64,000 bases of DNA from a virus (IMGVR_UViG_2671180984_000014); one strand, 5' to 3'; shown: positions 5,083 through 33,490, counted from the stretch's first letter. A program made the numbers and translations. Notes: generated from the letters alone by a model not told the origin.

Positions 5083-5438
5083 AGCACCACGTCCTGTGTG
5101 ATAGTTATATCCCTGATACGAATGGATATTTTCAACTTATCAAAAGCATCTCCCTCGGCTACTGACAAGCCAGAAATCGGTATGTCGGGTAAATCTACCG
5201 TCAGTTTTTGCAAAAGCATTGCCTCAACCGCAATTTGAACATGCGACAAGTTGGTCGGTTCGTGTTTAAACTGCGGTAAAACATTGCCCCATGACGGATC
5301 TCCGTATACCTCACCCTGATAAGTGTTTAGCCACTCATATAAACGAGCGCCCCAGGCCTCCTCCTGGGACTCATACGTTTTTACGCCGGATAACTCCAGC
5401 GTCAGTAAAGGATCAATTTCGTTATTGTTGGCCATCAA
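5079..5438 (-). CDS. small virion morphogenesis protein (119 aa)
   Basis: ORF coupled to the transglycosylase gene (4-bp overlap). Confidence 0.35.
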   Translation of the reverse strand: MMANNNEIDPLLTLELSGVKTYESQEEAWGARLYEWLNTYQGEVYGDPSWGNVLPQFKHEPTNLSHVQIAVEAMLLQKLTVDLPDIPISGLSVAEGDAFDKLKISIRIRDITITQDVVL

Positions 5439-17907: not shown

Positions 17908-18723
17908 TTAGCCAAGGCGCTTACGGCGCAGTTTCATTGACTTTTTGCGGGCAAGTTTTGCCGCACCCGTCTGGGCTTTTCGACGCGCTTTTTTCAGCGC
18001 CGATTTTTGAGCCGCAGTCAGACGTTTTTTACGCAGGCGTTTACGGATGAGTTTGATCTCACCGTTACGAACAACCTTCTTAAATGCTTCAGTCAGCATT
18101 TCATCAGAAGTGCCAGCAACAACAAACGCCGCTTCCAGTTCGTCACGGTCGTCGCTATCTAAACCAGCGATAGAGGCACCAACATCAGCAGCTGCGTCGT
18201 CGTCTTCATCGTCAGCCAGTGCTTCGATCAGGTCATCATCTACACCGCATGCTGCGAGGAAGTCAGCAACATTTGCCCATGCTTCGTTATAGGCATCGTC
18301 CTGTTCTTCTGTAACTTCGGAGTCGTCGTCATCAGAGATACCAGCGATAGCCTGAACGAAACCATCAAGGGAGTCGAAAGTCAGATCACCGCTATCAGCC
18401 CAGGCGAAAACGGCGTCGGCCGCATCACTCAACGCATTCTGCATAGCACTTCTATTTGCAGCTTCCAGAATCATCTGGTGCGCCTGTTCGACGGTCCATT
18501 CTTTACCGTCTTTCCCTTCCAGGATTTGCTCAGGAGCCGGGGCAGATGGAACGTTATCGTTAGTCTGTGCCGCCGGTTCCGGATTATTATTAATAACCGG
18601 ATCTGTTGGCTGTTCGGCGCTTGCTCGGGCAGACTCCATCAGCTGCACAGGATCAGAGTTCAAAGCGAAACGAGACAGTCCATTCCCCAAAAATGCCCCG
18701 GATTGAAAAAAGTTTTTGCTCAT
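17908..18723 (-). CDS. acidic-then-basic virion protein (271 aa)
   Basis: Asp/Glu-rich core followed by Lys/Arg-rich C-terminus. Confidence 0.35.
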   Translation of the reverse strand: MSKNFFQSGAFLGNGLSRFALNSDPVQLMESARASAEQPTDPVINNNPEPAAQTNDNVPSAPAPEQILEGKDGKEWTVEQAHQMILEAANRSAMQNALSDAADAVFAWADSGDLTFDSLDGFVQAIAGISDDDDSEVTEEQDDAYNEAWANVADFLAACGVDDDLIEALADDEDDDAAADVGASIAGLDSDDRDELEAAFVVAGTSDEMLTEAFKKVVRNGEIKLIRKRLRKKRLTAAQKSALKKARRKAQTGAAKLARKKSMKLRRKRLG

Positions 18724-18732
18724 TGTATTCCC

Positions 18733-20322
18733 TTACTTAATAAGCAGCGGTACGCCCTGGATACGACGGGCTACGCCAGTCGGGCAGCAGGCCCAGACTA
18801 CTTCCCATTTATCGAATTCCGCCTGCGTAACTTTCAGCACATACGGTTCTGTACCGTCAGCATCAGGATCACGAGGAGCCACCAGAGCGCCGGAGGCGAC
18901 AAAGCGATCTAAAAGTTTGGTCATCCCTTTAGTCAGGCCAGCCGCAGTAATACCGTCCGGGCTATGCTTCATCTGTCGGGCTAACTGGACAAAGAAACGG
19001 CTGATTGCATTCATCAGGGATGGGACGTGCTGGAAGTGCAGATAGTTATCCTGCGTGCAGCAAGTTAAAGCATCGTCGATGATCATCTGGCCAGAGGTGC
19101 CAACAGATACTTTATTGAGACGGCCCTTGACCATTGCTTCTTCGTCCGGGGTATCTTCCGGATACAGCGGTTGAATTGACGCACGAGCAATGACGGCACG
19201 TTCTTCACCAGCCGGTGAGTAATGCCAACCGCCGACATCAGAGTTTTTCTTGACGCCACGAGCTTTCGCCGCATACGCCACGCCAGACAGACCAAAGACC
19301 ACACGGGATTGGGTCCATTTGTCTTTGCAGGAGAACGGGTAGTGATAGACAGCACAGCTTACATAATCGGTACCAAGTAAACCGGTATCTTCAACAGCAG
19401 AGAGCGCTTCCGTATACGTCAATGTCGGTTTGACATCAAAGAAGCCATCAATCAGGCGATCAGAACAGATATTACCTAACGCGGTGATCGCCGCATTGTC
19501 ATAGCAACCCAGGCCGAGAACAGCGGTGTACATGTACGGCGCATTGTTCAGCACCTTAACCGCACGCAGGTACGCAGCGGTTGAGATTTTCGACTGATCA
19601 CCGTTGGTACCACCAGTGAACGCCAGCGATTTTTTATTTGTTACTTTCGCCGTCGAAATCAGCTCTTCATTAACAACCGCGCGCAGATATTTAGAACGGG
19701 CTTCCAGAGCCGTAGGCAGATAACACAAGCGGCCCATGTCATCTTTCGCTTCTTCCGCCAAAGACACAGTGTGTGTCTCCAGGGTCGTTACCACGCCGAG
19801 CGAAGTCGTCTGGGTCAGTTTTAAGAGGAAGCGTTCATTACCCGCGCTGTCCGCTGTTGCCGTTTCGATGGTTAACTCACGGGTAGGTGAAATACACGGA
19901 TCACCATCATCAACGTAGATAGCAAAGGCTTCGCCACTATCAAGTTCAATTTCAGAACCGTATGGCAACGCACTGTAAGCCGGTTCGCCTGATTCATCGA
20001 ACATAATAATCGGGAACTTCGCATCATCCGGAACAGCACGAACAACATAACCTGACGTTTGCTGAATAGCTTCGTATACATGGCGAATTGGTTCGAACTG
20101 TGAGCCGGAAGACGGCTTCAGCGGTTCGCCGAGAACATCTTTGTAATTGGACTCAGTAACCGCAAGAACAGTAAACGGCTTGCCACGCGCAAATACGCCA
20201 ATACCAGCCCACAAGCTGCTATTTAATGCAACACCGGTAGATAACGTCGCATCGGCATTGATCGGGCTAACCGCGACGCCGGATGCATTACCTAATGACT
20301 GTTGAATTGAATATTGAGACAT
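18733..20322 (-). CDS. putative contractile tail sheath protein (529 aa)
   Basis: Size and position next to the capsid gene; assignment by synteny (P1 gene 22 position). Confidence 0.4.
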   Translation of the reverse strand: MSQYSIQQSLGNASGVAVSPINADATLSTGVALNSSLWAGIGVFARGKPFTVLAVTESNYKDVLGEPLKPSSGSQFEPIRHVYEAIQQTSGYVVRAVPDDAKFPIIMFDESGEPAYSALPYGSEIELDSGEAFAIYVDDGDPCISPTRELTIETATADSAGNERFLLKLTQTTSLGVVTTLETHTVSLAEEAKDDMGRLCYLPTALEARSKYLRAVVNEELISTAKVTNKKSLAFTGGTNGDQSKISTAAYLRAVKVLNNAPYMYTAVLGLGCYDNAAITALGNICSDRLIDGFFDVKPTLTYTEALSAVEDTGLLGTDYVSCAVYHYPFSCKDKWTQSRVVFGLSGVAYAAKARGVKKNSDVGGWHYSPAGEERAVIARASIQPLYPEDTPDEEAMVKGRLNKVSVGTSGQMIIDDALTCCTQDNYLHFQHVPSLMNAISRFFVQLARQMKHSPDGITAAGLTKGMTKLLDRFVASGALVAPRDPDADGTEPYVLKVTQAEFDKWEVVWACCPTGVARRIQGVPLLIK

Positions 20323-20382
20323 AACTTTCCCTGTTATGCGCCCCGCACGGGGGCGCTATGTTAAACGGAGAACTTCCCCTGA

Positions 20383-22089
20383 TTACTCAGAGTCACCGGC
20401 ATCAATCGTGTCGCCGCTTATGAAGTTAAGCCCGCCTTTTTTGGCCATTGTCAGCGTTACACGAGTGAAGTAATCAGCGCCGTTGCGTGGGTGCATATCG
20501 TTGATAGCCGAACCCCACAGTGTGGTACGGTTGACCAGCGCCGGAGTGGTCGGATGCTGGAACGGGATAGCCGGGACAGCATCACCAGTCACGAAGCCTG
20601 CTTTACCCGGATTTTCATCACGGACGTAGCACAGCACATCCATCGAGCTGAACTGAATGTTCTCTGTCGTTAAGTTCTTACAAATACCAGCAGGTACTTC
20701 GTACACTTTCACGTTACCGAACAGGGTACCGATGTAGTGAACATACGGAGTCTGGATATAGTCTTCGGCTGGCTGGAAGAAATCCTTCGGCAACTGTTTG
20801 AAGAAAGATGCTGCATCAGCACCAGCAAACATCCCCATCGCACCAGAAGATTTAACGCGCTCAATAATGTCGCGATATACAGTCTGGAATTTGCCACGAA
20901 TGATGGTTGCCCATACATTAAAGGACTGGTTAACCGGCAGAGCGATGTCAAAGGTGTCGGTCGCAAGAGTACGCCAGATCATGATGCGAAGACGCAGCAT
21001 ATCCTGTTCATGAGACAGGTATTCCTTCAGGGTGCGGAACTGTAGGGAACCCAGGTCCAGACCAAATTCACGCTGTGCTTCATACGCCGCCTGTACCGTG
21101 TGCTCAGCCGCGATAACGAACTGACTTGGGAACAGGGTGTATTTCTTCATTTCGTGGTTGATCAGCGGGATCAGCTCAGGTGCGGCTTCAATATTGATTT
21201 CCGTCTCAATTGCGATCTCAGTGCCTTTATCCGGCGCTTTGGAGAACGACAGGGCAATCTGACCAATGTTGTAGTTCAGAGAGCAGGTAACAGTGATTTG
21301 CTCACCAGCAGCATTAGTAAACGAGTGAAGTAGGCTGCCGGAACCGTTATCAACAACAGACTTAATACGGTTAACGTAGATGTTAGTGCGACCTTTTCGG
21401 ATTGGTACATTCTGGCCTTCGAAGTCTTCCATCTTGAAGGTTGCGGTTTTGCTGGTGCCATCGGAGCTTGCCACCAGCACATAGCGGCGACGTAACTGGC
21501 TGTACACACCAACGGATTGCATGTCCAGAACATCACCAGCAGCATAAGAACCAAAAGAGGAACCTGCCACGTTAAAGACTTCATAGATGTCGGACTGGTC
21601 ACGCGTAACCGGAATGAAGGTACACGCATCAGCGGTAGCTGCCCCCAACTGAACAGGCAGGATCATCGCGAGGAATAAAGGCAGACGCATAACACCGTCA
21701 GAAACGCTCATCATCTCTGCTGCGACGGATTCCAGCATCGCTTTATTAGTGGCATCCATGCTATTGCGGGTGGACTCAATCAGGCAGTTTTCCAGCGTCT
21801 GGTGGCAGGAGGCCAGAATTTCCGGACGCGGCATAGATTTATGTGCTGCGGCGTAGTCAGCCAGTGCACTTGCCCACGCTGTAGCGATTTGAGCGGTGGC
21901 ATTATCAGAGATACCCGCAAAAACCGGGTCTTTACGTGCAGCTTCAAGGATAGATGCGGCACGCGCGGCATCATCTTTAATGAATTGGTTATCAGTACCG
22001 AACTGCGCAGTGCTTGCCCAGCCAAGCACAGCTTTAGAGCGTTTTGCGATATCTGCAATACGATTCTGGTATTCGCGTAAGTTACTCAA
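20383..22089 (-). CDS. putative major capsid protein precursor
   Basis: Helical N-terminal region then a large beta-rich body; no ATG near the 5' end; preferred start is TTG at 22089 behind SD AAGGAAG (track start at 22110 is also TTG). Confidence 0.4.
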   Translation of the reverse strand: MSNLREYQNRIADIAKRSKAVLGWASTAQFGTDNQFIKDDAARAASILEAARKDPVFAGISDNATAQIATAWASALADYAAAHKSMPRPEILASCHQTLENCLIESTRNSMDATNKAMLESVAAEMMSVSDGVMRLPLFLAMILPVQLGAATADACTFIPVTRDQSDIYEVFNVAGSSFGSYAAGDVLDMQSVGVYSQLRRRYVLVASSDGTSKTATFKMEDFEGQNVPIRKGRTNIYVNRIKSVVDNGSGSLLHSFTNAAGEQITVTCSLNYNIGQIALSFSKAPDKGTEIAIETEINIEAAPELIPLINHEMKKYTLFPSQFVIAAEHTVQAAYEAQREFGLDLGSLQFRTLKEYLSHEQDMLRLRIMIWRTLATDTFDIALPVNQSFNVWATIIRGKFQTVYRDIIERVKSSGAMGMFAGADAASFFKQLPKDFFQPAEDYIQTPYVHYIGTLFGNVKVYEVPAGICKNLTTENIQFSSMDVLCYVRDENPGKAGFVTGDAVPAIPFQHPTTPALVNRTTLWGSAINDMHPRNGADYFTRVTLTMAKKGGLNFISGDTIDAGDSE

Positions 22090-22104
22090 TTTACTCTTCC
22101 TTAA

Positions 22105-22169
22105 ACACAAGGCACTTGTGTGAATCCCTTTTCGGAAGAGATTTTATTGAAAGTCACTTGTTGACTTTC
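22105..22169 (-). promoter_or_regulatory. putative late promoter/leader: two perfect inverted repeats
   Basis: ACACAAGGCACTTGTGT (22105-22121) and GAAAGTCACTTGTTGACTTTC (22149-22169); the latter shares its core with 11065-11077, 43911-43925 and 60824-60839. Confidence 0.35.
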
Positions 22170-22225
22170 TCGTGACAAGCAATTTTTTTATTTTTTCGGG
22201 AGTAGGGGAGGAAGGTAAAATCCAA

Positions 22226-22313
22226 GGTGAAATCGTGGCGATTTCACCTTGAAATTTTAGATGGATTTACTTTAAAAACAGTAGGTTAATAGTGAAATTT
22301 GAATGGCGAAAGT
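22226..22313. promoter_or_regulatory. parS: parS partition site (centromere)
   Basis: Immediately after parB stop; reverse complement reads AAACTTTCGCCATTCAAATTTCACTATTAACC...TTTCAAGGTGAAATCGCCACGATTTCACC with ATTTCAC and TCGCCA motifs around an AT-rich core, as in P1 parS. Confidence 0.8.
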
Positions 22314-23315
22314 TTAAGGCTTCGGCTTTTTATCGAGGCTCTTTCTAAGGATATGCCCAATCATCCTGTCGAGTTCTTCCTGTAGCTCTTTTGAAAGTCG
22401 ATTAAACTCATAAGAAAATGCACGGCCTTTCACGCGCTTCCTTGCAAAGCGATCCTTGTCCTCAAATTTCCATAATTCAGTAACTACGGACTTATCTTTA
22501 GAACCTTTATCCGTGAGTAGTGAGGCTTCCTTTGTTATCAAGCGCAGGATTTTATTTTTAACTTCATCTTCGGCCATTTCTTCAATGGATAAGATGTCGT
22601 TTATTTCCGGGGATATGTTTTGAATAAGCTGATCAAACTCTAAATTCTTGTTCCCCATTTCGTCGCCAACAGCACAAAGCGTTTTGTAGTCCGAAAAGGT
22701 TAATTCCGACTGCACAGGGAAAAGGGCGACTAATTCTTCCGGAGCACTCGCTGCCTGGAGAGCACGCGTGACCTTCGCCTGAGACAGCCCTTCTTTGGCT
22801 GCAATATCCTTCTGACTCATCCCATCATTTTTCATTCGCATCAAACGCAGACCTATTTCTCGAATGCTGTGCTGCAATGCTGTCTGAACGTCTTTCGCTA
22901 AATTTTGCGCTTCCTGAACGCTGATCTCCTGGTCCGTGACTAAAACCCGCAACCCTACGTTCTCTAAGATGGCAGAAGCTCGACGCCGGGAACCATCCAA
23001 AATTTCAATTTTCCCTGTAGCCCGTCTAACACCTATTGCAGGGTAAAATTGCTGATGCTTAATAGTGCTTCGGATACTTTTTAATGATTTTGGCGTAAGA
23101 GATGCCTGGTCACGCCCGTTGTTATGCTGATCAACAAAGGTATCGCTTTCTACCTGGTTCGGAGGTATTACCTCTTCAATAAATGTGGCCTGGCGACCAG
23201 TTGATAACTTGAATACCTGCTCGACTCGATCGCCAGAGGCTGAAGAACTATCAAATCCGCTTAATATTGAAGGATTAAGGGTTCGCCCAATTGTTGGTCT
23301 GTTTTTCTTTGACAT
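22314..23315 (-). CDS. parB: ParB partition protein (333 aa)
   Basis: ParB-type HTH region (MSQKDIAAKEGLSQAKVTRAL); follows parA; followed by parS. Confidence 0.85.
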   Translation of the reverse strand: MSKKNRPTIGRTLNPSILSGFDSSSASGDRVEQVFKLSTGRQATFIEEVIPPNQVESDTFVDQHNNGRDQASLTPKSLKSIRSTIKHQQFYPAIGVRRATGKIEILDGSRRRASAILENVGLRVLVTDQEISVQEAQNLAKDVQTALQHSIREIGLRLMRMKNDGMSQKDIAAKEGLSQAKVTRALQAASAPEELVALFPVQSELTFSDYKTLCAVGDEMGNKNLEFDQLIQNISPEINDILSIEEMAEDEVKNKILRLITKEASLLTDKGSKDKSVVTELWKFEDKDRFARKRVKGRAFSYEFNRLSKELQEELDRMIGHILRKSLDKKPKP

Positions 23316-23331
23316 GGGGGTTTCTTACTCC

Positions 23332-24528
23332 TCAGTTAGATCTGATAAATTCAATACGGTCAAAAACTGCTTTAGCAAAATCTTCCGCGGCAATTCGCGC
23401 GTTCTTCAATGCATCAGCACTACCAACATACGTTGCAGGGTTAGCTGAAATAACAGTGTCAAAAGACTCGCCGCAGCGTTCAAAACCGTCAAGGCGAGGG
23501 AGGACGACATCAAGCATATCCCCACCGAACACTTCTTTAGCCAGGCTATGGCAATACTTATGGTCTGCCTTGTTACTCAACTTGGACATAAAACCAATGT
23601 TAGTCGCAAGCTGGCACTCGCAGCCTTCATCCGAAATGAGTTTCACCAACTCAGGAAGGCGGGCAACGTATTTAAGCGATGAGTGGAAATCAACCGTTGC
23701 AGGCGGCAGAGGTGTAAACAGTATATTGGCCGAGGCCAAAGCATTTTTCAGGAAGGCGTCAAGGTGAGGACCACTATCAACGAGGATAAAGTCATAATCG
23801 CTCTTCAGCTTATCAATCACATTTTCTTTCAGGACAGCATGGATGTTCTGACCCGGTAGATGCTCATTGCACAGCTCTCTCCAATCGGATGCAATAAAGG
23901 CATCGTCAATCGACGCAGGCATAACGTCAACCCCAGGTACAACAGAAGGAACAATAAACTCCTCTAACAGCTCTTCACGGCTTACATTCTGCAACATAGC
24001 CTGTGCAGATGTTGCGTTTACGATACCAATAGAGTGTTTATGGCTTAAAAACATCGTTGCTGAAGATTGCGGATCAAGGTCAATAACCAGAATCCTTAAA
24101 TCTTCCATCAGAAGATGAGGGTGAGCACGCATTGCATGCGCCAGAGAAACCGTCGATACAGTTTTTGACACACCGCCTTTAAGATTGGAGATGAAAATCA
24201 CATACGCTTCGCTGTAGCGATCCCGGTATTTTGGCACTCCGCGATGTTCATATATGTCAATGATGTTCTGAATTGACATCGCATATTTCATTGAAGAGCC
24301 AGCAGGGCGTTTATCGAAAACATAACCCTTTTCTTCCATTTCACTTACGGCATAGTCAACGTTCGCTCGAGTCAGTAGAGGCAATTTTGCCAGTGCCGCT
24401 TTCGCATAGACCTGGTAAAACTCGTTCGCGTGTAGCTCATCCTTTTGCAACTGTACTTGTTCAGTCAGAACATTGAGCATTCTGTTTGCTCTTTGAGCAA
24501 CCTTGTGAAGCTGGCTGGAATCACTCAT
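23332..24528 (-). CDS. parA: ParA partition ATPase, type Ia (398 aa)
   Basis: Deviant Walker A NLKGGVSKTVSTVSLA, Walker B-like LVIDLDPQ, ~100-aa N-terminal extension. Confidence 0.85.
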   Translation of the reverse strand: MSDSSQLHKVAQRANRMLNVLTEQVQLQKDELHANEFYQVYAKAALAKLPLLTRANVDYAVSEMEEKGYVFDKRPAGSSMKYAMSIQNIIDIYEHRGVPKYRDRYSEAYVIFISNLKGGVSKTVSTVSLAHAMRAHPHLLMEDLRILVIDLDPQSSATMFLSHKHSIGIVNATSAQAMLQNVSREELLEEFIVPSVVPGVDVMPASIDDAFIASDWRELCNEHLPGQNIHAVLKENVIDKLKSDYDFILVDSGPHLDAFLKNALASANILFTPLPPATVDFHSSLKYVARLPELVKLISDEGCECQLATNIGFMSKLSNKADHKYCHSLAKEVFGGDMLDVVLPRLDGFERCGESFDTVISANPATYVGSADALKNARIAAEDFAKAVFDRIEFIRSN

Positions 24529-24665
24529 CGAAAGTCATCCTTTATGCTGTATTTTTGAATTTAATTAAAAATGCTGCATAAAATAATAATGTATGCGTAG
24601 ATGCTTGTACATGGCATTCTCTGCATGTTTTGTTCATTTTGCACGATTGAGAGTTACAAGAAAGG

Positions 24666-24689
24666 CACAAAAAAGCCCCGTTCAGGGGC
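24666..24689 (-). terminator. rho-independent terminator closing the two-gene cassette
   Basis: Minus-strand hairpin GCCCCTGAACGGGGC followed by TTTTTT. Confidence 0.6.
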
Positions 24690-24696
24690 ATCAGTG

Positions 24697-25101
24697 TTAT
24701 TTGCTAAGAGCAGCGAATAATCGTTCGAAATCGATAGTATCTATAGCACGCGTAAGCGCCGGAAGTTCAGCCTCAAAGTACCCGTGTCGATCGTAAAAGA
24801 AGGGACCGAAGAGCGAGGCATGTTGGATTCTACTTCGCCCCAGCCCGGACACACAGTTAAGCCCATTACCGGCTAAAAGGCTAAAAAACTTCTCTGGATT
24901 ATCGTGGTAAAGCTGAGAATCAATGGTGGCGGTTAACTCTTCCATAGGGAAGCACACCCGCCCTGTCTCCCAGGGATATTTAGTCCGAAGCATAAACATT
25001 GCTTTCAGCAATTCACATTGAGCGCGGATCGCGTCCGGTTCATAGCCAGATATGGAGACATAAGCCACGTCCCTCATTCCTGCGTCATCTTTGAAAGTCA
25101 C
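24697..25101 (-). CDS. hypothetical protein (134 aa) of the incA-par cassette
   Basis: ORF with no recognisable motif. Confidence 0.4.
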   Translation of the reverse strand: MTFKDDAGMRDVAYVSISGYEPDAIRAQCELLKAMFMLRTKYPWETGRVCFPMEELTATIDSQLYHDNPEKFFSLLAGNGLNCVSGLGRSRIQHASLFGPFFYDRHGYFEAELPALTRAIDTIDFERLFAALSK

Positions 25102-25170
25102 GATAGAAGTAACATCCAGTTCTTTTTCGAAAGAGCGAGCAGCATCTACTGGACGCTGAAGTAAATCATT

Positions 25171-25506
25171 CTACTTAATGCGCTCGAGAATCCCTCCCCA
25201 CATATCATTTAGATATTCGATATGAGCCAAAACCTTATCAAGACACTCTCGTGTAAACCATTCAGTATGCCCGCCACCGGCGCTTTTCTCCCACGGCGCA
25301 TTCCAGGGGAAAAAGGTTGCGTGTAAAGCCCGCTCAAGATTAACCATTGCCAAACGCGTACCACGATAGACCCGTGAAAGCGCAAAATCGGGACTCACTT
25401 GTAGCCCTTTAAACCGTGCCAATGGACCACATGAAATGCCGATTTTAAAAGTATCTCCGTTCTCCGGCACCAGAACGTAGAGGTAGTGTTGTTTCTCTTC
25501 TTGCAT
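25171..25506 (-). CDS. T5orf172 / GIY-YIG-like domain protein (111 aa)
   Basis: YLYVLVPENGDTFKIGIS ... GGHTEWF resembles the T5orf172 signature. Confidence 0.45.
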   Translation of the reverse strand: MQEEKQHYLYVLVPENGDTFKIGISCGPLARFKGLQVSPDFALSRVYRGTRLAMVNLERALHATFFPWNAPWEKSAGGGHTEWFTRECLDKVLAHIEYLNDMWGGILERIK

Positions 25507-25540
25507 ATCAATACCACTGCTTGATGAGAACCGCGCAAAT

Positions 25541-25767
25541 GTTGACTATGCGCGATGTGACTACAGTCAAAAGTTGACTGTAGTCGATTTAACTCCACCA
25601 AAGATCGACTATGTAAGATATTGTCGGGAGAAACGTTGACTATACGCGATGAAATGACCCTAAAAGCCATCTCAATAGCGACTTGCAGAATATTGACGCC
25701 AGCAAAAATCCACCAGCGTCAACGAATGTCGCCTATAGTCAACTTCTCGCTATCGCATATAGTCAAT
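25541..25767. repeat. incA-like iteron cluster downstream of repA
   Basis: At least seven copies of the core (A)TCGCGYATAGTCAAC in both orientations. Confidence 0.65.
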
Positions 25768-25768
25768 A

Positions 25769-26710
25769 TTATGGATTGCGCTTATGGATCTGAAAGCCGA
25801 TTTTCCTGCCGTTTTTTATCTCTGAAAATTTAAGATATTCAATAGCTTCCAAATCTTTCATGGCTTTTCTGATAACGCTATTTTGCACGCTAACGGATGA
25901 TTTGAGATTAAGCCTTGCTCTAAGGCGCTCAATGCTGACAGGTGCCGGGTTGGCGGGTAGAGCCTCAAAGAATGTATACAGTACCTTGGCCGTCTCTTTG
26001 CGCCCGAGCTTATCCAGCATCTTCAGCTTCAGGATTCGCTTATAGTCAACATAGTAAAGTTCAGATAGCTGTTTCTGCGGCTGGATCTCGATAACATCAA
26101 GCTCGGTATTCAGGCTGCTATATGCCAACAAGTTGACGTTAATGTTATTGAGATGACCTTTTGCCGCCGGGAAGCGGAATTTGACAACTGTCTGCTGAAT
26201 GCGTGTCAGAGAGTCATCAATACTTTTACGGAACGCCTTTGAAAGGCGCTTACGTGGATAGCCGCATCGATCGGCAAACTCGGAGAATGGCAGGGTGATT
26301 ATGCCGTCATCATCAGGTGCGTAGTCAAACAACGCGGAGGTTATGCCCACCCACACCTTAAAATCAGTATCCATATCCAGGCGTGGACCATGAATTTCAA
26401 TTCCCTCATAGCCTTCCTGCTCAACAATTTTGAGGCTTGATAGTTCTTCGGTTGCGTTCGTTGTGTTTGTAGTAACTGACGATCCGCGACGTAGTGCCAC
26501 ATTGGTAGATTTTAAGGTTGGCACAAACACACCTAAGCGCAACAAAGCAATGGGTTGTATAGTGCTATTGTTATTGGGTTTCAGGCTGTGGATTTCTCCT
26601 GTATTTCCTGCAACTTCTTCAACGCTAAGGAAGCCTTTATTTTCTTCCAGCATCGTGGTTTCTCCATATGTGGCGCGGCCTGGCGTCATCTGGATTGCAG
26701 TTATCAACAA
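25769..26710 (-). CDS. repA: iteron-binding replication initiator RepA
   Basis: Rep-family initiator (LRLGVFVP, GPRLDMDTDFKVWVGI) flanked by iterons; start may be an internal Met. Confidence 0.8.
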   Translation of the reverse strand: MLITAIQMTPGRATYGETTMLEENKGFLSVEEVAGNTGEIHSLKPNNNSTIQPIALLRLGVFVPTLKSTNVALRRGSSVTTNTTNATEELSSLKIVEQEGYEGIEIHGPRLDMDTDFKVWVGITSALFDYAPDDDGIITLPFSEFADRCGYPRKRLSKAFRKSIDDSLTRIQQTVVKFRFPAAKGHLNNINVNLLAYSSLNTELDVIEIQPQKQLSELYYVDYKRILKLKMLDKLGRKETAKVLYTFFEALPANPAPVSIERLRARLNLKSSVSVQNSVIRKAMKDLEAIEYLKFSEIKNGRKIGFQIHKRNP

Positions 26711-26730
26711 CTGTGAATAGTCAGGCTCTA

Positions 26731-26834
26731 AAATCGCGTACAGTCAATGTTTCTGTCGCATATAGTCAACAATAAATCGCGTGCAGTCAACAATAAATCG
26801 TGCACAGTCAACATAAAATCGCGTATAGTCAATG
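26731..26834. repeat. origin iterons (incC-like), five ~21-bp direct repeats
   Basis: AAATCGCGTRYAGTCAACAAT x5; DnaA-box-like TTATCAACA at 26701-26709. Confidence 0.7.
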
Positions 26835-26986
26835 TTGATCCCATTTCAGGCCAGAAATGGCGCGGCTTACAGCGATCCGGGATCTTCTTTGGATCTTCCT
26901 GGGTTCTCTTTAGGATCTGTTTATTGGATCTATGCTGTGGATAAGTTGAATAAACCGGCCAACATAGCCGGTTGGAAGGAAGGGTA

Positions 26987-27379
26987 TTATTCTACGCTTT
27001 CGATAAGAAGACCATGTTCATAACATTTAAGCTCATCGCCTTCGTACAGGAATTGGTATCCAATACCACCATTTTCATGGACATTAGGGAATAACTCATA
27101 ACTCACTGAAGAGCAAATCACACCAATGCAGCGATCAACGCCTTCTCGTTCTTCAGTGCTGAAAAAATCCTCTTCGGTAAGAACATGAGTACATTGCTCA
27201 TCAGCATAGGTCGGAAATACATGCTCGATGCAATCCGGGTGTTTTAAACCAAGCTGATCGGCAAGCTCGAAAGCATGACGGTATTGTTCAGATCCTGGCT
27301 TGCCAACAGTGATGTGCTCAATTTTGTAAATTGAAGTCGCTTTGTTGATAGTTTGCTTTACTGTTACTTTATCAGACAT
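26987..27379 (-). CDS. hypothetical protein (130 aa)
   Basis: ORF. Confidence 0.35.
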   Translation of the reverse strand: MSDKVTVKQTINKATSIYKIEHITVGKPGSEQYRHAFELADQLGLKHPDCIEHVFPTYADEQCTHVLTEEDFFSTEEREGVDRCIGVICSSVSYELFPNVHENGGIGYQFLYEGDELKCYEHGLLIESVE

Positions 27380-27390
27380 AAAAATCCCTT

Positions 27391-27642
27391 TTAGTTACCG
27401 CTGATAGCGCGGTTGTAATCATTAACGTTGCGATTCTTCCTGTTAATCCCCATCAGCATCGTTTCTGTATCGAGGATATACGCTGGCAGATCATCAAAAT
27501 ATTCACTGCTAAACTCTGGCATCCTGCACATAAACGCACTTTTGGGGGCAGGGTGGTTAACCTTTGTCGGCGTCGGCGTTAAATTCGCTGATCGACTCCC
27601 GGAGCAACCGCTGAGTGTCAGCAGGAATGCGCTGGCGAACAT
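27391..27642 (-). CDS. outer-membrane lipoprotein, o-spanin (Rz1)-like
   Basis: Lipobox LTLSGC, Pro-rich mature part (TPTPTKVNHPAPK); start overlaps 3' end of 27557-28006 in another frame. Confidence 0.45.
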   Translation of the reverse strand: MFASAFLLTLSGCSGSRSANLTPTPTKVNHPAPKSAFMCRMPEFSSEYFDDLPAYILDTETMLMGINRKNRNVNDYNRAISGN

Positions 27643-28006
27643 TACCCGCCGCAACCAGTTGTTTCTGAACTTCAGCTTTTCGTTCCATTTGCCTGTCAGC
27701 ATATTTGGCTTGTTCTGATTCATTTTTCACTTCCTGGCTGTGAAAATGTTGCTCTGCTTTGTTCATCGTCTCAATGGTCTGGTTAAGATCCATTATTGAC
27801 TTATCACGTTCCTTAACAGCCTGATCAAGACTGCCAATTTTCTCCATGGCTTGCTTTAGCTGATGACGTTCCCATGCAAACCCAGCACCAACAAGTGCGC
27901 AAATCAGAACAAGAACACCAGTAGCAGCAAGTTTCTCCTTCAAAGACAAAGCTGTTTTTAACGTAGAAAAGAATGACATGTCTTCCTCCTGAAGAAAAAT
28001 TATCAA
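27557..28006 (-). CDS. i-spanin (Rz)-like: N-terminal TM helix plus coiled coil
   Basis: TM segment ATGVLVLICALVGAGFAW then charged coiled-coil region. Confidence 0.4.
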   Translation of the reverse strand: MIIFLQEEDMSFFSTLKTALSLKEKLAATGVLVLICALVGAGFAWERHQLKQAMEKIGSLDQAVKERDKSIMDLNQTIETMNKAEQHFHSQEVKNESEQAKYADRQMERKAEVQKQLVAAGNVRQRIPADTQRLLRESISEFNADADKG

Positions 28007-28018
28007 TGAAGTCCTTTG

Positions 28019-28807
28019 TTACCGTGCCGCTTTGTTTAATTCATCAAGAACAGAATCAGGAACCAAAGCGGCGACTGCGCTGGCTGTGCTGGCCTTATTT
28101 GCTGATGCTTCCGCAAGCGCGGTACCGATAGCATGGTTATAAGCAGTTATGGCTACGTTGGCGCTTTCATTCGCTCGTTCATACTGCTGTTGTAACGCAG
28201 TTGTGGGTGCTGTTGTCTGGTTGAAAACAACCCCAAACTGTTCAGTTGCTACTTTCAGAGATTCAATTTGCTCTTCTGTTAGTGCTGGTGGGGGAGTGGC
28301 AGTGCCGCCGCCTGAACCAGAGCCTGACGAGCTTTCTGAGCCAGTGTTAAGGGCCTGGTTAATCTCCCCCATTGCAGCGACTAAACTTGATGTATTAAGC
28401 GCGTTAACAGCGTCCTCAAGCGATTTAGTAATATTCACATCACCAATGGCAATAGAGATCGGCAGTTCTGAAACTTCTCGCTCATTAGCACGGCAGTAAA
28501 CATCCCAACCAATATCGAGTTGAAGCAGCATTGACAGATCTGCATAACCAGCCAACAGGTCCGCGTGCTTAGTTGCCAGTTCTCCAATGTTCGTTAAGCC
28601 GGTTGTGGTTGTTCTGATCGTTGAAACATAGCTGGTAATAGTGTCGGGATAGACAATTGTATCCAGAATTAATCCGGTCAATTCTTCTGCAAGCAGTTTT
28701 GCTGTGTTAGCACTGTTTCGTGCCGATGTTATGGCACCAGGTGTTTTCATCCCACCGGCGGCGGCCAATTTTTTATATGCGGATAACTGGTAGTCTTTTT
28801 CCAACAT
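28019..28807 (-). CDS. hypothetical protein (~262 aa)
   Basis: Track ORF 28019-28864 trimmed to internal Met (MLEKDYQ...) to avoid overlap with upstream gene. Confidence 0.3.
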   Translation of the reverse strand: MLEKDYQLSAYKKLAAAGGMKTPGAITSARNSANTAKLLAEELTGLILDTIVYPDTITSYVSTIRTTTTGLTNIGELATKHADLLAGYADLSMLLQLDIGWDVYCRANEREVSELPISIAIGDVNITKSLEDAVNALNTSSLVAAMGEINQALNTGSESSSGSGSGGGTATPPPALTEEQIESLKVATEQFGVVFNQTTAPTTALQQQYERANESANVAITAYNHAIGTALAEASANKASTASAVAALVPDSVLDELNKAAR

Positions 28808-28815
28808 GATATCTC

Positions 28816-29100
28816 CTAACTTACCTGAACCAGGCCGTCTCCGGACGCTACGGTAGATCCGCATGAAACAGGGTCACCAACGCATACGATCCCTTTACCA
28901 TTGACGGTAAACCATGCCCTGGTTGATATAGCTTGCCCACCGTGCGTACTGTTTCCATCGGTATGCTGTGCATATTGCTTACCATCAACTAACACTTCGA
29001 CTCCGTTGACTTTAAGTAGTGGTTCACTCTCTACAGGAGGCCTGGATGGGAATCCTCCGTGCCCCGAACAAATGCTGTCTTTTGTTGCAATGCTTGCCAC
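28816..29100 (-). CDS. PAAR-like small spike-tip protein (94 aa)
   Basis: Motifs SGHGG, THGG and VCVGDPVSCGS typical of PAAR-repeat proteins. Confidence 0.4.
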   Translation of the reverse strand: MASIATKDSICSGHGGFPSRPPVESEPLLKVNGVEVLVDGKQYAQHTDGNSTHGGQAISTRAWFTVNGKGIVCVGDPVSCGSTVASGDGLVQVS

Positions 29101-29181
29101 GCCATCACCAATTATTTGCTCTGATTTTCGTTATTTTAACTTAGGTTATTTGTGGTCTGTATGGCGTTTACTTATCGCAAA

Positions 29182-29198
29182 ATTGCTCTAATAAATAT
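29182..29198 (+). promoter_or_regulatory. C1-type operator (ATTGCTCTAATAAATAT) in divergent promoter region
   Basis: 15/17 match; precedes the hrdC-dmt operon. Confidence 0.65.
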
Positions 29199-29269
29199 TG
29201 TTTTTTATGTCGTATTTTCGGTACCATTCAGCCATCGCCCTTCAATGGGCATTTGTTTGGAGTCGTCAG

Positions 29270-29554
29270 ATGCAGATGGAGCTAATAAGCCGCAAAGAGT
29301 TCGATAGCCGTGTAACCAGCGGTGAACTCGACAACTTGCAGGCTATCAAGGTGAAAGAAGGCTTTTGCCTCATTGGGAATCAGAGCGGAATAAATCGCGT
29401 TTTTATGCTTCGCCGTACGGATTTGAAGCCATTTGTCTGGAAGAACGAAATTGGTCCCAGCTCATACGCTCAAACGAGGGGGTGCCACAACCTGGCCTTT
29501 TTCTACAAAGACGAGCTTTCTGTGGTTGATATTCAAGGGTTACAACATGTTTAA
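29270..29554 (+). CDS. small protein upstream of the rdgC homolog (~94 aa)
   Basis: Internal Met of track ORF 29198-29554; start uncertain. Confidence 0.3.
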
Positions 29555-30452
29555 GCACTGGAAAAACATTACTATTTATAAACTTTCTCGTGAGGCGGAT
29601 CTGACCGACTTAGAAGATAAAAAGAAAATGATCCTTTTCACGCCATGCGGTAGTCAGGATATGGCCAAGTTCGGTTTTGTATCGCCATTTGGTGATAATT
29701 CTGAAGTTATCGCTATGCATGGAAATGGTTTTATCCTTGTTGAAGCAAAGCGCGAAACAAAAATTCTTCCCCCGCCGGTTATCCAGCGAGCTATTCAAGA
29801 AAAAATTGAAAAACTTGAGCAAGAACAAGCGCGTAAACTGAAGAAAACAGAGAAGGACTCCCTGAAAGACGAAGTTCTGCATTCTCTTCTGCCACGGGCT
29901 TTTTCAAAGTTTTCTGTTATCCAGGCGATCTACGACGGTTCAACTAAACGTATCTATATCAATGCCAGCGCGCGGCAGGCAGAGGATATGCTCGCGCTTA
30001 TGCGTAAGTCTCTGGGTTCTCTTCCTGCTGTTTCCCTGAGTGTTGAAAATCCCATTGAATTAACGCTGACCGACTGGGTACGTGATGGTAGTGCTCCACA
30101 GGGATTTCAAATGGGGGATGCGGCAGAACTTAAGGCAGTGCTTGAGGATGGCGGTATTGCCCGAGTGAAAAAGCAGGATTTGGGAAGCGATGAAATTTCC
30201 ACACACCTGGAAGCTGGCAAGCTCGTCACTAAGTTGGCACTCGACTGGCAGAACCGCATTAAATTTACACTGGACCATAACTTCAGCCTTACCAGCGTCA
30301 AATTTGCGGATGAATTGCTTGAGCAGAACTCTGATATTGATAGTGAAGATGTTGCGCAGCGACTGGACGCAGATTTCTTCCTGTTGACCAGTGAAATTTC
30401 GTGCCTGGTTGATGCTCTGGTAAATGCCCTTGGCGGAGAGGCTAAGCAGTGA
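29547..30452 (+). CDS. hrdC: RdgC homolog (recombination-associated protein)
   Basis: [16 protein letters not shown]...[15 protein letters not shown]...[30 protein letters not shown] aligns along full length with E. coli RdgC; start set at internal ATG 29547. Confidence 0.8.
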
Positions 30453-33400
30453 AAGAGCTGTGCTATGGATCTGTTTGCAGTGGAATTGAAGCCGCGAGTA
30501 TTGCCTGGGAACCGTTGGGTATGCGTCCGGCGTGGTTTGCTGAAATCGAGCCTTTTCCATCGGCCGTTCTTGCGCTCCGCTGGCCCCATGTTGCCAACCT
30601 TGGCGACATGAAAAAACTTGCCAAAAAAGTCTTGGCTGGGGAAATCGAATCCCCTGACGTGCTCGTCGGGGGAACACCATGTTTTACCGCGGGGCATATG
30701 GTTCTTTGTAAAAATGGCTATAAACCAATAGAAAATGTTTGCCCTGGTGATTACGTAGTCAGTCATCTCGGGCGGTTACAACAAGTAAAAAGAGTTGGTT
30801 CAAAAATAGCTAATACGGGGTTACTTAATGCCGTTGGGCAGCCTTTAGGTATAAGAACAACCAATGACCATCCCTTCCTGGCTGTTCGGTGGAAAGCCCA
30901 AAACACCCGGAAAAATGGCACATATTTTAAGAGAGAGTTGTTGTCTGAACCGGAATGGCGAGCAGCATGTGATATGCCGGGATATCAATGGTGCGCTCTA
31001 ACTAATTTCAATATTGCATTTCCAGATATTTGTTCTCGGTTCTTGTCTGAAGAACAGGCTATGTATCTTGCGGGCGCTTATGTTGGCGATGGATATATTA
31101 GGAGATGGAGAGGTAAATCTAAGAAGGCGGTTGTTTTTGGCATAAATTGCCAGAAATTGAGAAAGTTTCATTGCCGCATACCAGAAAACATATTTTCCGT
31201 GGCAAGCGAAATCCGAGGGAGCATCAAAGTAACCTTGAATGATACGTGTTATGCCAATTGGCTTAATGAACATTTTGGCGAGTTAAGCCATGCTAAGCGT
31301 ATCCCTGCATGGGTGATGTCGCATCCATTGCGTCATGTGTTTTTACAAGGCTATCTTGATACTGATGGGACACCAAGTGGTAAAGCGGGATTTAGAATTA
31401 ATAGTGTTAGTTCTGCGCTTGCTTGGGGCGTTGCGGGGTTGTCACAGACTTGTGGTTATGTTTCTTCGGTCAGCTTTATTGAAGTTGAGCCCAAAAAAGT
31501 GATCGAGGATCGCGTGGTAAATCAACGGAATTATTATCAGGTAACAATCTGCCCGCAGAAATTGTCACGTAAATCAAGATTGGCTCATGGAATGCTTTTA
31601 CGAACAGTCAAAGAGTTTAAATCGGTAGGCCTAGATACTGTATACAACATAGAAGTCGAAGGTGATCATTCCTATATCCTCAATGGTGCGGTGGTCCATA
31701 ACTGTCAGGCATTCAGTATCGCGGGATTACGTGGTGGGCTTGATGATGAGCGTGGCGCGCTAACTTTAAAGTATGTGGAGCTTGCAAATGCAATTGACGA
31801 CAAACGGGCTGAGTCATTTCTCAAACCAGCCGTTATCGTCTGGGAAAATGTCCCAGGAGTCTTGTCATCGGCAGATAACGCCTTCGGATGTTTCCTTGCC
31901 GGATTGGCTGGAGAAGATGTGCCATTTGAACCAGGTGATCGACCTGAATCAGGAAAAAGCAACGCGTTCTGGCGGTGGGATGGCAAAACCGGTTGCCATG
32001 TTCCAAAGTGGCCGCAGTGTGGTTGTATTTATGGACCGCAGCGAAAAGTGGCCTGGAGAATCCTTGATGCCCAATACTTCGGAGTGGCACAACGACGCCG
32101 ACGCGTGTTTGTTGTCGCAAGTGCTCGAACAGATCTCGATCCCGCAACGGTACTTTTTGAGTTCGAAGGCGTGCGCCGGAATATTGCGCCGAGCAGAGGC
32201 GAGGGGAAGGAAACTACCAGATATACTTCAAACATCGCTATCAGAACTTGCGATGATACAAACATAATTGCCATGGCACATGGGCAAGGAGGGGCTGAGA
32301 TAAAAACCGATAATTCGGCACCAACTTTGACATGTAACCATGAAGCACCAATTGTATTGCTCGGCGACGGTAGAATGCGCCGTCTTACCCCTGTCGAATG
32401 TGAAAGGCTGCAAGGTTTTCCTGATTGGCATACGTTGATCCCTACGGAAAAGCGTAAAAAAGTTAATTCAGATGAACTGGCATATCTGCACAATCACTAT
32501 CCAGATTTAAGCGAAGAAGAGGCCGCAATGCTTGCAGCTGACGGACCGCGTTACAAAGCGATCGGCAATAGTATGGCAATACCAGTAATGCGCTGGATTG
32601 GCGATCGGATTACTAAGGCCGTATGTCGGCAGAAAGAAGGAAGTGAAACAAAAGAGCGAAAAGTTAAACCAGCGGCAGAATTCGAACGGTCCATATTCAA
32701 ATGGGCTGGTGGAAAATTTGGTGTTCTGGAACAAATCTTTCGCTATTTGCCAGAAGGGAAGCGCCTGATTGAACCTTTCGTTGGTGGCGGAGCTGTCTTC
32801 ATGAATGCCGGATACCAGGAAAATCTGCTAAATGATGTGAATGCTGACCTGATTAACTTTTACAAGACTCTGCAACGCGAGGCGCATTCACTTATCACTC
32901 TGGCACATCGTTTCTTCCAGGACTACAACACACAGGAAGGATACCTGGCAGTACGGAATGCGTTTAACAAACAAGTCTATGATGATTTACATCGCGCAGC
33001 GGCGTTTTTGTTCCTGAACCGACATTGTTTTAACGGATTGACGCGTTACAACCAGGCCGGTGAGTTCAATGTCGGTTATGGGAAGTATAAAACTCCGTAT
33101 TTCCCATTACAGGAGATGGAAGCCTTCCTCGGTGCGGAAGGGCGGTCTGAGTTTGTATGCGGTGATTTTGCAGCGGTGATTGAAGCTGCCGGAGAAGGAG
33201 ATGTCATCTTTTGCGATCCGCCGTATGAACCGCTTCCAAATACAGAGGGATTCACGAACTATTCCGGTCATGACTTTAAGTTTGAAGAGCAAAAACGCCT
33301 GGTGTCTCTGTTGACGGATGCTCATCGTCGAGGTGCAAAGGTTCTCATTACTAACAGTGGCGCGCCAAACATCAGAGAGCTTTATCATGACAGTGGCTTC

Positions 33401-33490
33401 AGAGTGGAACCTCTTTTTGCCAGACGTTCTGTGTCTTGTAAGGGGGACACTCGAGGTGTAGCTCATGACGTTTTGGGTATATTGCTCTAA
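30449..33490 (+). CDS. dmt: bifunctional DNA methyltransferase: N-terminal C5-cytosine MTase (intein-interrupted) fused to C-terminal Dam-like N6-adenine MTase
   Basis: GTG start overlapping hrdC stop; C5 motifs GGTP|[22 protein letters not shown]; Dam motifs KWAGGK and DPPY. Confidence 0.8.
30680..31702 (+). other. intein (341 aa) with LAGLIDADG homing-endonuclease core inside dmt
   Basis: Begins Cys ([20 protein letters not shown]), block [19 protein letters not shown] and [10 protein letters not shown], ends [21 protein letters not shown] followed by Cys+1. Confidence 0.8.

Follow-up and report, generated by a model that had tools for sequence, protein, structure and literature searches.

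A very probable p0111-type basic replicon beside P1-type partition genes in a P1-like phage-plasmid backbone

P1-like phage-plasmids carry IncY or p0111 as two replicon types (PMC9603915). In phage JL22, which represents the second type, repA'(p0111) and a gene of unknown function stand in place of repA(IncY) (PMC9603915). Among Salmonella the p0111 type was counted 132 times versus 94 for IncY, and 17 switches were inferred (PMC11165635). The RepA of phage-plasmid SJ46 was reported as 42% identical to P1 RepA (PMC5241659). The IncY replicons of P1 and P7 begin, at the outer end of the origin, with DnaA boxes (two in tandem in P1), followed by a GATC cluster (five annotated Dam sites in P1) and then by five iterons spaced at 21/22 bp, which in P1 are incC iterons 10-14. 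Past the stop of P1 repA lie nine incA control iterons, of which iteron 9 abuts the stop; the proximal copies have the orientation of the origin copies and the distal copies are inverted. The genes follow the order parB-parA-repA-upfA. A related arrangement is found in the RepFIB replicons (F, P307 and pO157), with origin iterons upstream of the rep gene, control iterons downstream of it and a DnaA site. In FIB the downstream iterons suffice to displace a resident plasmid, and experiment supports control of the handcuffing type (PMC11983097).

The locus described here lies in a 64-kb stretch of viral DNA that was analysed as a whole and is called the window below. An earlier note on this DNA had singled out positions 25541-26834 as an iteron replicon unlike that of P1, combined with a P1-type centromere, and had proposed that the element was a mosaic. 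The features of the locus are as follows, with the basis for each.
22227-22309, minus strand: parS centromere, P1-type, by alignment to the annotated P1 parS
22227-33, 22241-47, 22249-55 and 22292-98: parS box A, four heptamers, all identical to P1
22236-41 and 22304-09: parS box B, two hexamers, both identical to P1
22276-88: parS IHF site, by alignment to the NC_005856 annotation
22314-23315, minus strand: parB, 333 aa, P1-type (Pfam ParB PF08775), in a stretch 98.9% identical to P1
23332-24528, minus strand: parA, 398 aa, P1-type (Pfam ParA HTH_54 and AAA_31), in the same stretch
24631-26990, unstranded: block of about 2.4 kb replacing P1 incA-repA-oriR, from blastn against NC_005856, junction alignments and an identity profile
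24675-24689, minus strand: terminator-like hairpin and T-run by consensus scan only, just past the T5orf172 gene at the left edge of the block
24697-25506, minus strand: T5orf172 / GIY-YIG-family gene within the swapped block (Pfam T5orf172)
25541-25767, both orientations: control iteron array (incA-like), five firm copies
25541-25556, 25573-25588 and 25635-25650, minus strand: distal control copies, inverted, by motif search
25728-25743 and 25752-25767, plus strand: control copies proximal to repA, in the orientation of the origin copies
25557-25570, 25605-25618 and 25709-25722, no strand assigned: degenerate control-side candidates, with 2 mismatches in the 9 invariant positions
25769-26653, minus strand: repA, 294 aa, iteron-type initiator of the P1 RepA / RepFIB family, by homology
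26035-26050, plus strand: iteron-like site inside the repA coding sequence, the 11th firm copy, by motif search
26729-26836, plus strand: origin iteron array (incC-like), five direct copies with a spacing of 21/22 bp
26733-26748, 26755-26770, 26776-26791, 26797-26812 and 26818-26833, plus strand: the five origin copies, by motif search
26837, 26874, 26881, 26892, 26914 and 26927 (26837-26930), no strand assigned: six GATC (Dam) sites in the interval from the iterons to the DnaA box
26936-26944, minus strand: perfect DnaA box TTATCCACA at the outer end of the origin, by sequence scan

The element is very probably the basic replicon of a catalogued P1-like phage-plasmid of the p0111 type, lying beside P1-type parABS. 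From 24400 to 27100 the window is the same as plasmid pO111_2 (NC_013370, from E. coli O111:H- strain 11128), after which the p0111 type is named, except for a 30-bp deletion. The repA DNA has zero differences from the pO111_2 coding sequence WP_000888906.1, the RepA proteins are 100% identical, and the surrounding backbone is P1-like (Punavirus), which is the combination that characterizes the type. Typing under the PlasmidFinder label p0111 takes a nucleotide identity of about 95% or more to the repA of pO111_2, and the replicon typing of repA that the earlier note had recommended accordingly gives p0111. The PlasmidFinder reference for p0111, AP010962, is presumably the same plasmid as NC_013370. 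The record AP010962.1 is cited in PMC11165635. The expectation of a different incompatibility group is likewise borne out as a matter of typing, p0111 versus IncY (PMC9603915, PMC11165635).

The same replicon recurs in described phages. Positions 25400-27000 are 97.7-99.4% identical in SJ46, RCS47, JL22, phi456 and others, and pO111_2 and the named phages have it at the same position between parA and upfA with the same T5orf172 passenger. Two differences separate these relatives from the window: the p0111 reference has six control iterons where the window has five firm copies, and the nonsense mutation that the window shares with pO111_2 in the T5orf172 gene sets it apart from SJ46 and from sequence L009. 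At least 80% of a 1.6-kb query from the replicon was covered in 374 plasmid records, and the p0111 repA segment was present in 415 of 5,426 complete E. coli genomes. Among the best 5,000 plasmid records, RepA was at least 95% identical in 395 and 80-95% identical in 3; none fell at 60-80%, and more than 4,600 lay below 60%. The mosaic is thus already well described, and the replicon is real but ordinary, with nothing new in it as a finding.

The repA gene begins with an ATG at 26653, and a GGAGA is located upstream at 26660-26664. Aligned over its full length, the RepA protein shares 41% identity with canonical P1 RepA (E 2e-71) and 47% with an E. coli IncFIB RepA (E 2e-85), and the P1 and IncFIB proteins are 48% identical to each other. 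By these values the p0111, P1 and IncFIB RepA proteins appear as three roughly equidistant branches of one family. In Pfam searches Rep3_C scored 27.0 bits, above its cutoff of 21.1, and Rep3_N scored 21.7 bits, just under its cutoff of 22.4; PF01051 (Pfam Rep_3) is present in close homologues. RepA also matched phrog_775, and NCBIfam gave zero matches for RepA or for the passenger open reading frames. A search of PDB sequences with RepA returned nothing meaningful. A structure of RepA was predicted with AF2 (pLDDT 71.6, with about 60 N-terminal residues at low confidence), and the best structural matches to this model were exclusively iteron-binding winged-helix initiators of solved structure, whose likeness to RepA is undetectable by the PDB sequence search, namely domains 2-3 of Vibrio RctB, F RepE, R6K pi and the WH1 domain of pPS10 RepA, with E values from 7e-7 to 1e-3; TrfA was also among the top matches, at 2.5e-2. 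Global TM-scores against RepE and pi were low, at 0.3-0.4, and single-domain WH1 matches reached about 0.6 when normalised to the target. On this model RepA is predicted to have a tandem winged-helix fold.

The kinship with the FIB initiators raises the possibility that the replicon is a member of the IncFIB (RepFIB) group, captured recently from an F-type or Klebsiella FIB plasmid. Some records do label the protein 'RepFIB replication protein A', the IncFIB-type initiators are its nearest large group of relatives at 44-49% identity, and FIB shares the organisation in which the rep gene stands between origin and control iterons (PMC11983097). Such an origin is nevertheless very improbable, given that at 47% the protein is no closer to IncFIB RepA than P1 RepA is, and that the best 5,000 plasmid records hold the nearly empty interval between 60% and 95% noted above. 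The repeats around the IncFIB rep gene of sequence L005, for example CTGACTACAGCTTATAT, also differ from the TCG-N5-AGTCAA core of the window, and together with the 47% identity they place the replicon outside the IncFIB (F/P307) specificity. RepFIB RepA is, in addition, longer at its C-terminus (325 aa), and RepFIB replicons reside on conjugative F-type plasmids, not on phage-plasmids. A donor plasmid outside the P1-like or D6-like elements was looked for among the best 5,000 plasmid records and none was found. A replicon of the p0111 type remains the reading preferred here.

The iterons were mapped by motif search of the full window. With up to three mismatches allowed, ATCGCGTATAGTCAAC gave 11 matches, all within 25541-26833, where 0.44 would be expected in the 64 kb, and none of 100 shuffles reached 11. 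When reduced to its invariant positions, the motif TCGNNNNNAGTCAA returned the identical 11 sites with zero mismatches (0.59 expected in the 64-kb window), although this form was built from the same 11 sites and is no independent test. The core TCG-N5-AGTCAA contains the 9 invariant positions; the longer core previously proposed, CGCRYATAGTCAAC, matches exactly at only 3 of the 11 sites and has to be shortened to this invariant part. The flagged span of 25541-26834 is bounded exactly by the outermost copies of the motif. On the origin side all five direct repeats of the earlier description were recovered. On the other side of repA the presence of repeats in both orientations holds, but the count of at least seven does not, as five copies are firm and a higher number is reached only through the degenerate candidates that begin at 25557, 25605 and 25709. 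These candidates cannot be certified because a search with two mismatches runs at chance level across the window (167 found versus 179 expected). A position weight matrix built from the 11 sites found zero copies of intermediate score in the window.

Two further properties of the repeats deserve description. The site inside repA at 26035-26050 coincides with 17 nt over which the window repA and that of L006, a related E. coli sequence described below, match without interruption; this run is the third-longest of its kind between the two genes, which are 75% identical at the nucleotide level overall. At the far end of the control array, the 30-bp deletion relative to pO111_2 and SJ46 is placed at 25540..25541 and takes out one distal control iteron with its spacer (GTTGACTATGCGCGAAAGTTAATGTGAATA). 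The deleted 30 bp are flanked by two identical direct copies of GTTGACTATGCGCGA, and the short form of the array is also present in NZ_CP087567 and NZ_CP062839. The difference between five and six control iterons is therefore a recurrent polymorphism, and by analogy to incA deletions in P1 it might alter copy number. In the p0111 literature no paper was found that joins p0111 with iterons; a map at nucleotide resolution of the iterons, origin and control array of the p0111 type may thus be undescribed, and would constitute routine annotation and no discovery.

Upstream of repA, a consensus scan of the repA strand found no sigma-70-like site in the interval from the iterons to the ATG. By eye, the only -35-like hexamers on the minus strand are TTGACT hexamers, one within each iteron. 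A repA promoter lying within the iterons, and autoregulation through it, are assumed here by analogy to P1.

A more distant carrier of the replicon is L006, a 91-kb E. coli contig with a flank like that of phage D6. Its RepA (P0003) is 85% identical to that of the window, and the gene occupies the rep locus of D6, flanked by pmgB-like and tub-like genes. L006 shares with the window the iteron core, the five-copy origin array, the intragenic site, the control array in two orientations and the DnaA/GATC module. The finding of the same replicon type in a D6-like backbone therefore indicates that replicons of this family travel from one phage-plasmid backbone to another as a cassette. The Rep protein of D6 itself was considered as the source of the cassette and was dropped, as it is unrelated to RepA.

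It could be asked whether the repeats serve replication at all. They might instead be bound by the T5orf172 protein or act as a second centromere, or the replicon might be an inactive remnant on an element maintained by another replicon; the unusual copy within repA and the promoter scan that found none would fit such a view. This is extremely improbable. With respect to the DnaA box, the GATC cluster and a homologous RepA, the arrays occupy exactly the positions that incC and incA have in P1, and they are conserved together with RepA in L006, in a different backbone that lacks the T5orf172 gene. The gene for the T5orf172 protein is broken in the window and in pO111_2, and the arrays are still kept in both. 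As for inactivity, repA is intact, and the 395 plasmid records with a protein at least 95% identical (among the best 5,000) argue against a remnant. SJ46, whose sole published plasmid-type rep is the p0111 repA, was stably kept in transformants though untypeable by PCR replicon typing (PMC5241659). A replicon with iterons of the p0111 type is accordingly retained as the interpretation of these arrays.

Compared with P1, the locus has the same order of origin elements, the same number and phasing of origin iterons and the same gene order at the same genomic position. The control array comes within 2 bp of the repA stop, as iteron 9 does in P1, and its proximal and distal copies are oriented as in incA. 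The perfect DnaA box is one of just two in the window; it aligns with the annotated DnaA site of P1 oriR and lies about 100 bp from the first iteron. A density of at least six GATC per 110 bp occurs nowhere else in the 64 kb than at 26837-26930. With a full-length P1 RepA homologue and a layout that follows P1 almost feature for feature, the replicon is, on this comparison, not foreign in kind. The differences are in number and in sequence: one outer DnaA box where P1 has its tandem pair, six GATC sites versus the five annotated Dam sites, and five control iterons (six in the p0111 reference) versus nine. The iteron-like site inside repA and the T5orf172 gene between the control array and Ppar are additional to what P1 has. 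The iteron sequences themselves are unrelated. The P1 19-mer GATGTGTGCTGGAGGGAAA had no match in the window at up to three mismatches, whereas in a positive control run on P1 it recovered 11 of 14 annotated iterons, and conversely no iteron of the TCG-N5-AGTCAA type was found in the P1 region. The earlier statement that this iteron is unlike that of P1 was thus correct.

That the locus is simply an ordinary P1/P7 IncY replicon, with the P1 iteron mistaken in the earlier note, agrees with the gene order parB-parA-repA-upfA and the P1 layout and can for practical purposes be dismissed, since RepA is only 41% identical to its canonical P1 counterpart, P1-type 19-bp iterons are absent where P1 yields 11 of 14, and 24631-26849 is free of P1 nucleotide homology but for a 59-bp patch. 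Alignment clearly shows neither the iterons nor RepA to be essentially identical to those of P1, the outcome named beforehand as the one that would count against a separate replicon. The evidence from sequence is strong that the p0111 replicon has a replication specificity separate from that of P1/IncY.

The boundaries of the replacement were placed by alignment to P1 (NC_005856). From 18000 to 24630, a stretch that includes gp21-gp23, parS, parB, parA and Ppar, the window is 98.9% identical to P1. On the left the transition is abrupt and falls at 24630/24631, some 20 bp upstream of Ppar. Between 24631 and 26849 blastn found no nucleotide homology to P1 except the 59-bp patch, at 76%. To the right, 26850-30682 is 96% identical to P1 with identical gene order; the junction on this side is graded, at about 26954-27000, and P1 identity of at least 92% is back only near 27000. 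A right junction at 26838-26850, which would have kept the P1 DnaA/GATC module, was considered and dropped after the three-way alignment with L006 and the identity profile. Across the GATC/DnaA module at 26843-26953 the identity is 75% with P1 and 85% with L006, the latter being the same level as that of the iteron block, and at informative sites the window agrees with L006 at 19 and with P1 at 8. The module therefore belongs to the incoming replicon. The swapped block is accordingly larger than the flagged span, to which it adds the part of the origin with the GATC sites and the DnaA box as well as the T5orf172 gene. The proposal of a mosaic, in which P1 partition is joined to another replicon, is sustained by the 98.9% identical flank, the 41% identity of RepA and the unrelated iterons.

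The reading frame of the T5orf172 gene carried in the block is cut short by a TAG at codon 112 (25171-25173). The nonsense change is a T at 25172, where L009, L010 and SJ46 have G, and the mutated gene is also present in pO111_2. The intact form in L009 has 269 aa and matches phrog_2876 and, weakly, an endonuclease phrog. The T5orf172 protein may be imagined as a homing-type nuclease that cuts the IncY allele and drives gene conversion of incA-repA-oriR. If this were true, it would explain the repeated switches between IncY and p0111 on near-identical P1 backbones, and would also account for the one sharp and one graded junction. The idea is nonetheless unlikely, and it has against it the broken state of the gene here and in pO111_2 and its absence from L006, the D6-like carrier of the same replicon type. 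Homologous recombination in the P1 flanks accounts for the pattern of switching just as well.

In the partition module on the left of the block, the ParB boxes of parS (four box A heptamers and two box B hexamers) show no difference from those annotated in NC_005856, in agreement with the P1-style layout that had been described. The five substitutions relative to that record all lie between boxes, and two of these affect the annotated IHF site. Judged by its genes and its centromere, the partition system is classed as P1-type ParA-ParB-parS. A different arrangement is seen in OP279344, a record named P1, in which parS is non-P1 and clearly unlike that of the window and the par region is P7-like, with about 65% identity over part of parA only. 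This record joins an IncY RepA to a non-P1 par region, and the rep and par modules therefore reassort independently.

The most likely mode of replication is that of the homologous P1 and RepFIB replicons. RepA, through its predicted tandem winged helices, would bind the five origin iterons, which are phased two helical turns apart. RepA and host DnaA, the latter bound at the adjacent box, would then open the neighbouring GATC-rich segment, leading to theta replication. The control array past the repA stop would also bind RepA and would pair with the origin by handcuffing, and such pairing would result in a low copy number and in replication incompatibility. Binding of RepA to the iterons, dependence on DnaA and Dam, handcuffing and autoregulation are in this scheme all taken over from the analogous systems. 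Specificity would reside in the diverged RepA-iteron pair, and because RepA is 41% identical to P1 RepA and the iterons are unrelated, no cross-reaction with P1/IncY would be expected. Segregation would proceed through the P1-type ParA, ParB and parS.

A separate replication specificity would not by itself make the elements compatible. The P1 record annotates parS as the incB determinant, and the element retains the P1 parS, so partition incompatibility with P1 should remain. Co-occurrence of the two types was estimated among the 5,426 complete E. coli genomes by inclusion-exclusion on three genome searches, uncorrected for population structure. The p0111 repA segment was found in the 415 genomes given above, the IncY repA segment in 359, and a concatenated query of both in 772 genomes and 775 records. 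Both types were therefore present in 2 of the 5,426 genomes, where about 27.5 would be expected under independence, and no record contained both; the Poisson probability of two or fewer such genomes is about 5e-10, again uncorrected for population structure. The scarcity could be due to immunity, to the shared parS or to population structure, and shared immunity together with shared parS is sufficient to explain it. The data show that the difference in replicon does not make the whole elements freely compatible, and the rarity of co-occurrence does not give positive support to compatibility with IncY.

For the biology of these elements, the boundaries of the exchange are now placed, and they indicate an exchange of the basic replicon in its entirety, with the DnaA/GATC module included. 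Although their replicons differ, elements of the IncY and p0111 types hardly ever occur in one host. These additions leave the current understanding unchanged. For typing and surveillance, the window is confirmed as part of a p0111-type P1-like phage-plasmid, a member of a class that makes up roughly half of the P1-like elements and sometimes has ESBL genes aboard.

The replicon block that replaces the P1 incA-repA-oriR region in the window and its flank contain the first three features listed here, and a related replicon was located in another phage-plasmid:

Window 24697-25506: T5orf172/GIY-YIG-family gene, split by a premature TAG at 25171-25173.
Window 26035-26050: iteron-like site within repA.
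Window 30449-33490: dmt methyltransferase ORF of 1013 aa.
Contig DABKFZ010000018 (GCA_013513435.1; hereafter L006) 3700-5130: p0111-type replicon with a RepA 85% identical at the amino acid level and with the iteron core and DnaA/GATC module seen in the window.

The premature stop in the T5orf172 gene carries T at position 25172, where G is found elsewhere, and is common to the window and the reference p0111 plasmid pO111_2 (NC_013370). The gene is unbroken in NZ_CP087567, forming a 269-aa ORF assigned to phrog_2876. A 30-bp deletion at 25540/25541, bracketed by identical direct repeats, removes exactly one iteron and its spacer from the control array beyond the repA stop codon. This deletion was present in the window, NZ_CP087567 and NZ_CP062839 and absent from pO111_2 and SJ46. 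The number of control iterons is therefore polymorphic, and this variation may influence how many plasmid copies are maintained. The iteron-like site inside repA, which has no equivalent in P1 repA, corresponds precisely to a stretch of 17 nt over which the repA genes of the window and L006 match perfectly. Identity across these two genes as a whole is only 75%, a pattern suggestive of selection acting directly at the DNA level.

At the right junction of the block, identity to P1 was graded. The adjoining 3' part of upfA (27000-27149) was 92-94% identical and the sequence further on 96-100% identical, a zone that may mark a recombination tract. Beyond it, the dmt gene contains approximately 1020 bp more than canonical P1 dmt, with the insert at about 30683-31702. 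The insert begins with Cys and ends in HN, followed by Cys; it matched LAGLIDADG_3 above the cutoff, Hint_2 just under the cutoff and Intein_splicing weakly. It resembles an intein that carries a homing endonuclease, placed within the C5-methylase half of Dmt. The same 3042-nt form of the gene was observed in pO111_2 and OP279344.

ParA and ParB of RCS47 and SJ46 have been described as P7-like and distant from P1 (PMC5241659). This statement seems to conflict with the sequences, as SJ46 aligned to window 22000-29000 in one piece at 98.3% identity, spanning parB and parA, and the par region of the window is 98.9% identical to that of P1. The P1-like p0111 plasmids NC_013370, NZ_CP087567 and NZ_CP062839 are typed as 'IncHI1B' by MOB-suite (per PLSDB), which is a misleading replicon label for this family.

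Among 5,426 complete E. coli genomes, only two carried both IncY and p0111 repA (about 27 expected under independence), and none carried both on one record. The backbone around the p0111-type replicon of L006 is that of a D6-like phage-plasmid, and the replicon occupies the position that an unrelated Rep_3 gene takes in D6; this replicon cassette has thus moved between phage-plasmid lineages. OP279344 (2042-4565), labelled phage P1, combines an IncY RepA with a non-P1 par region, which has a parA sharing approximately 65% nucleotide identity with that of the window, different gene lengths and a different parS. This combination indicates that par and rep modules are reassorted independently among P1-like elements.
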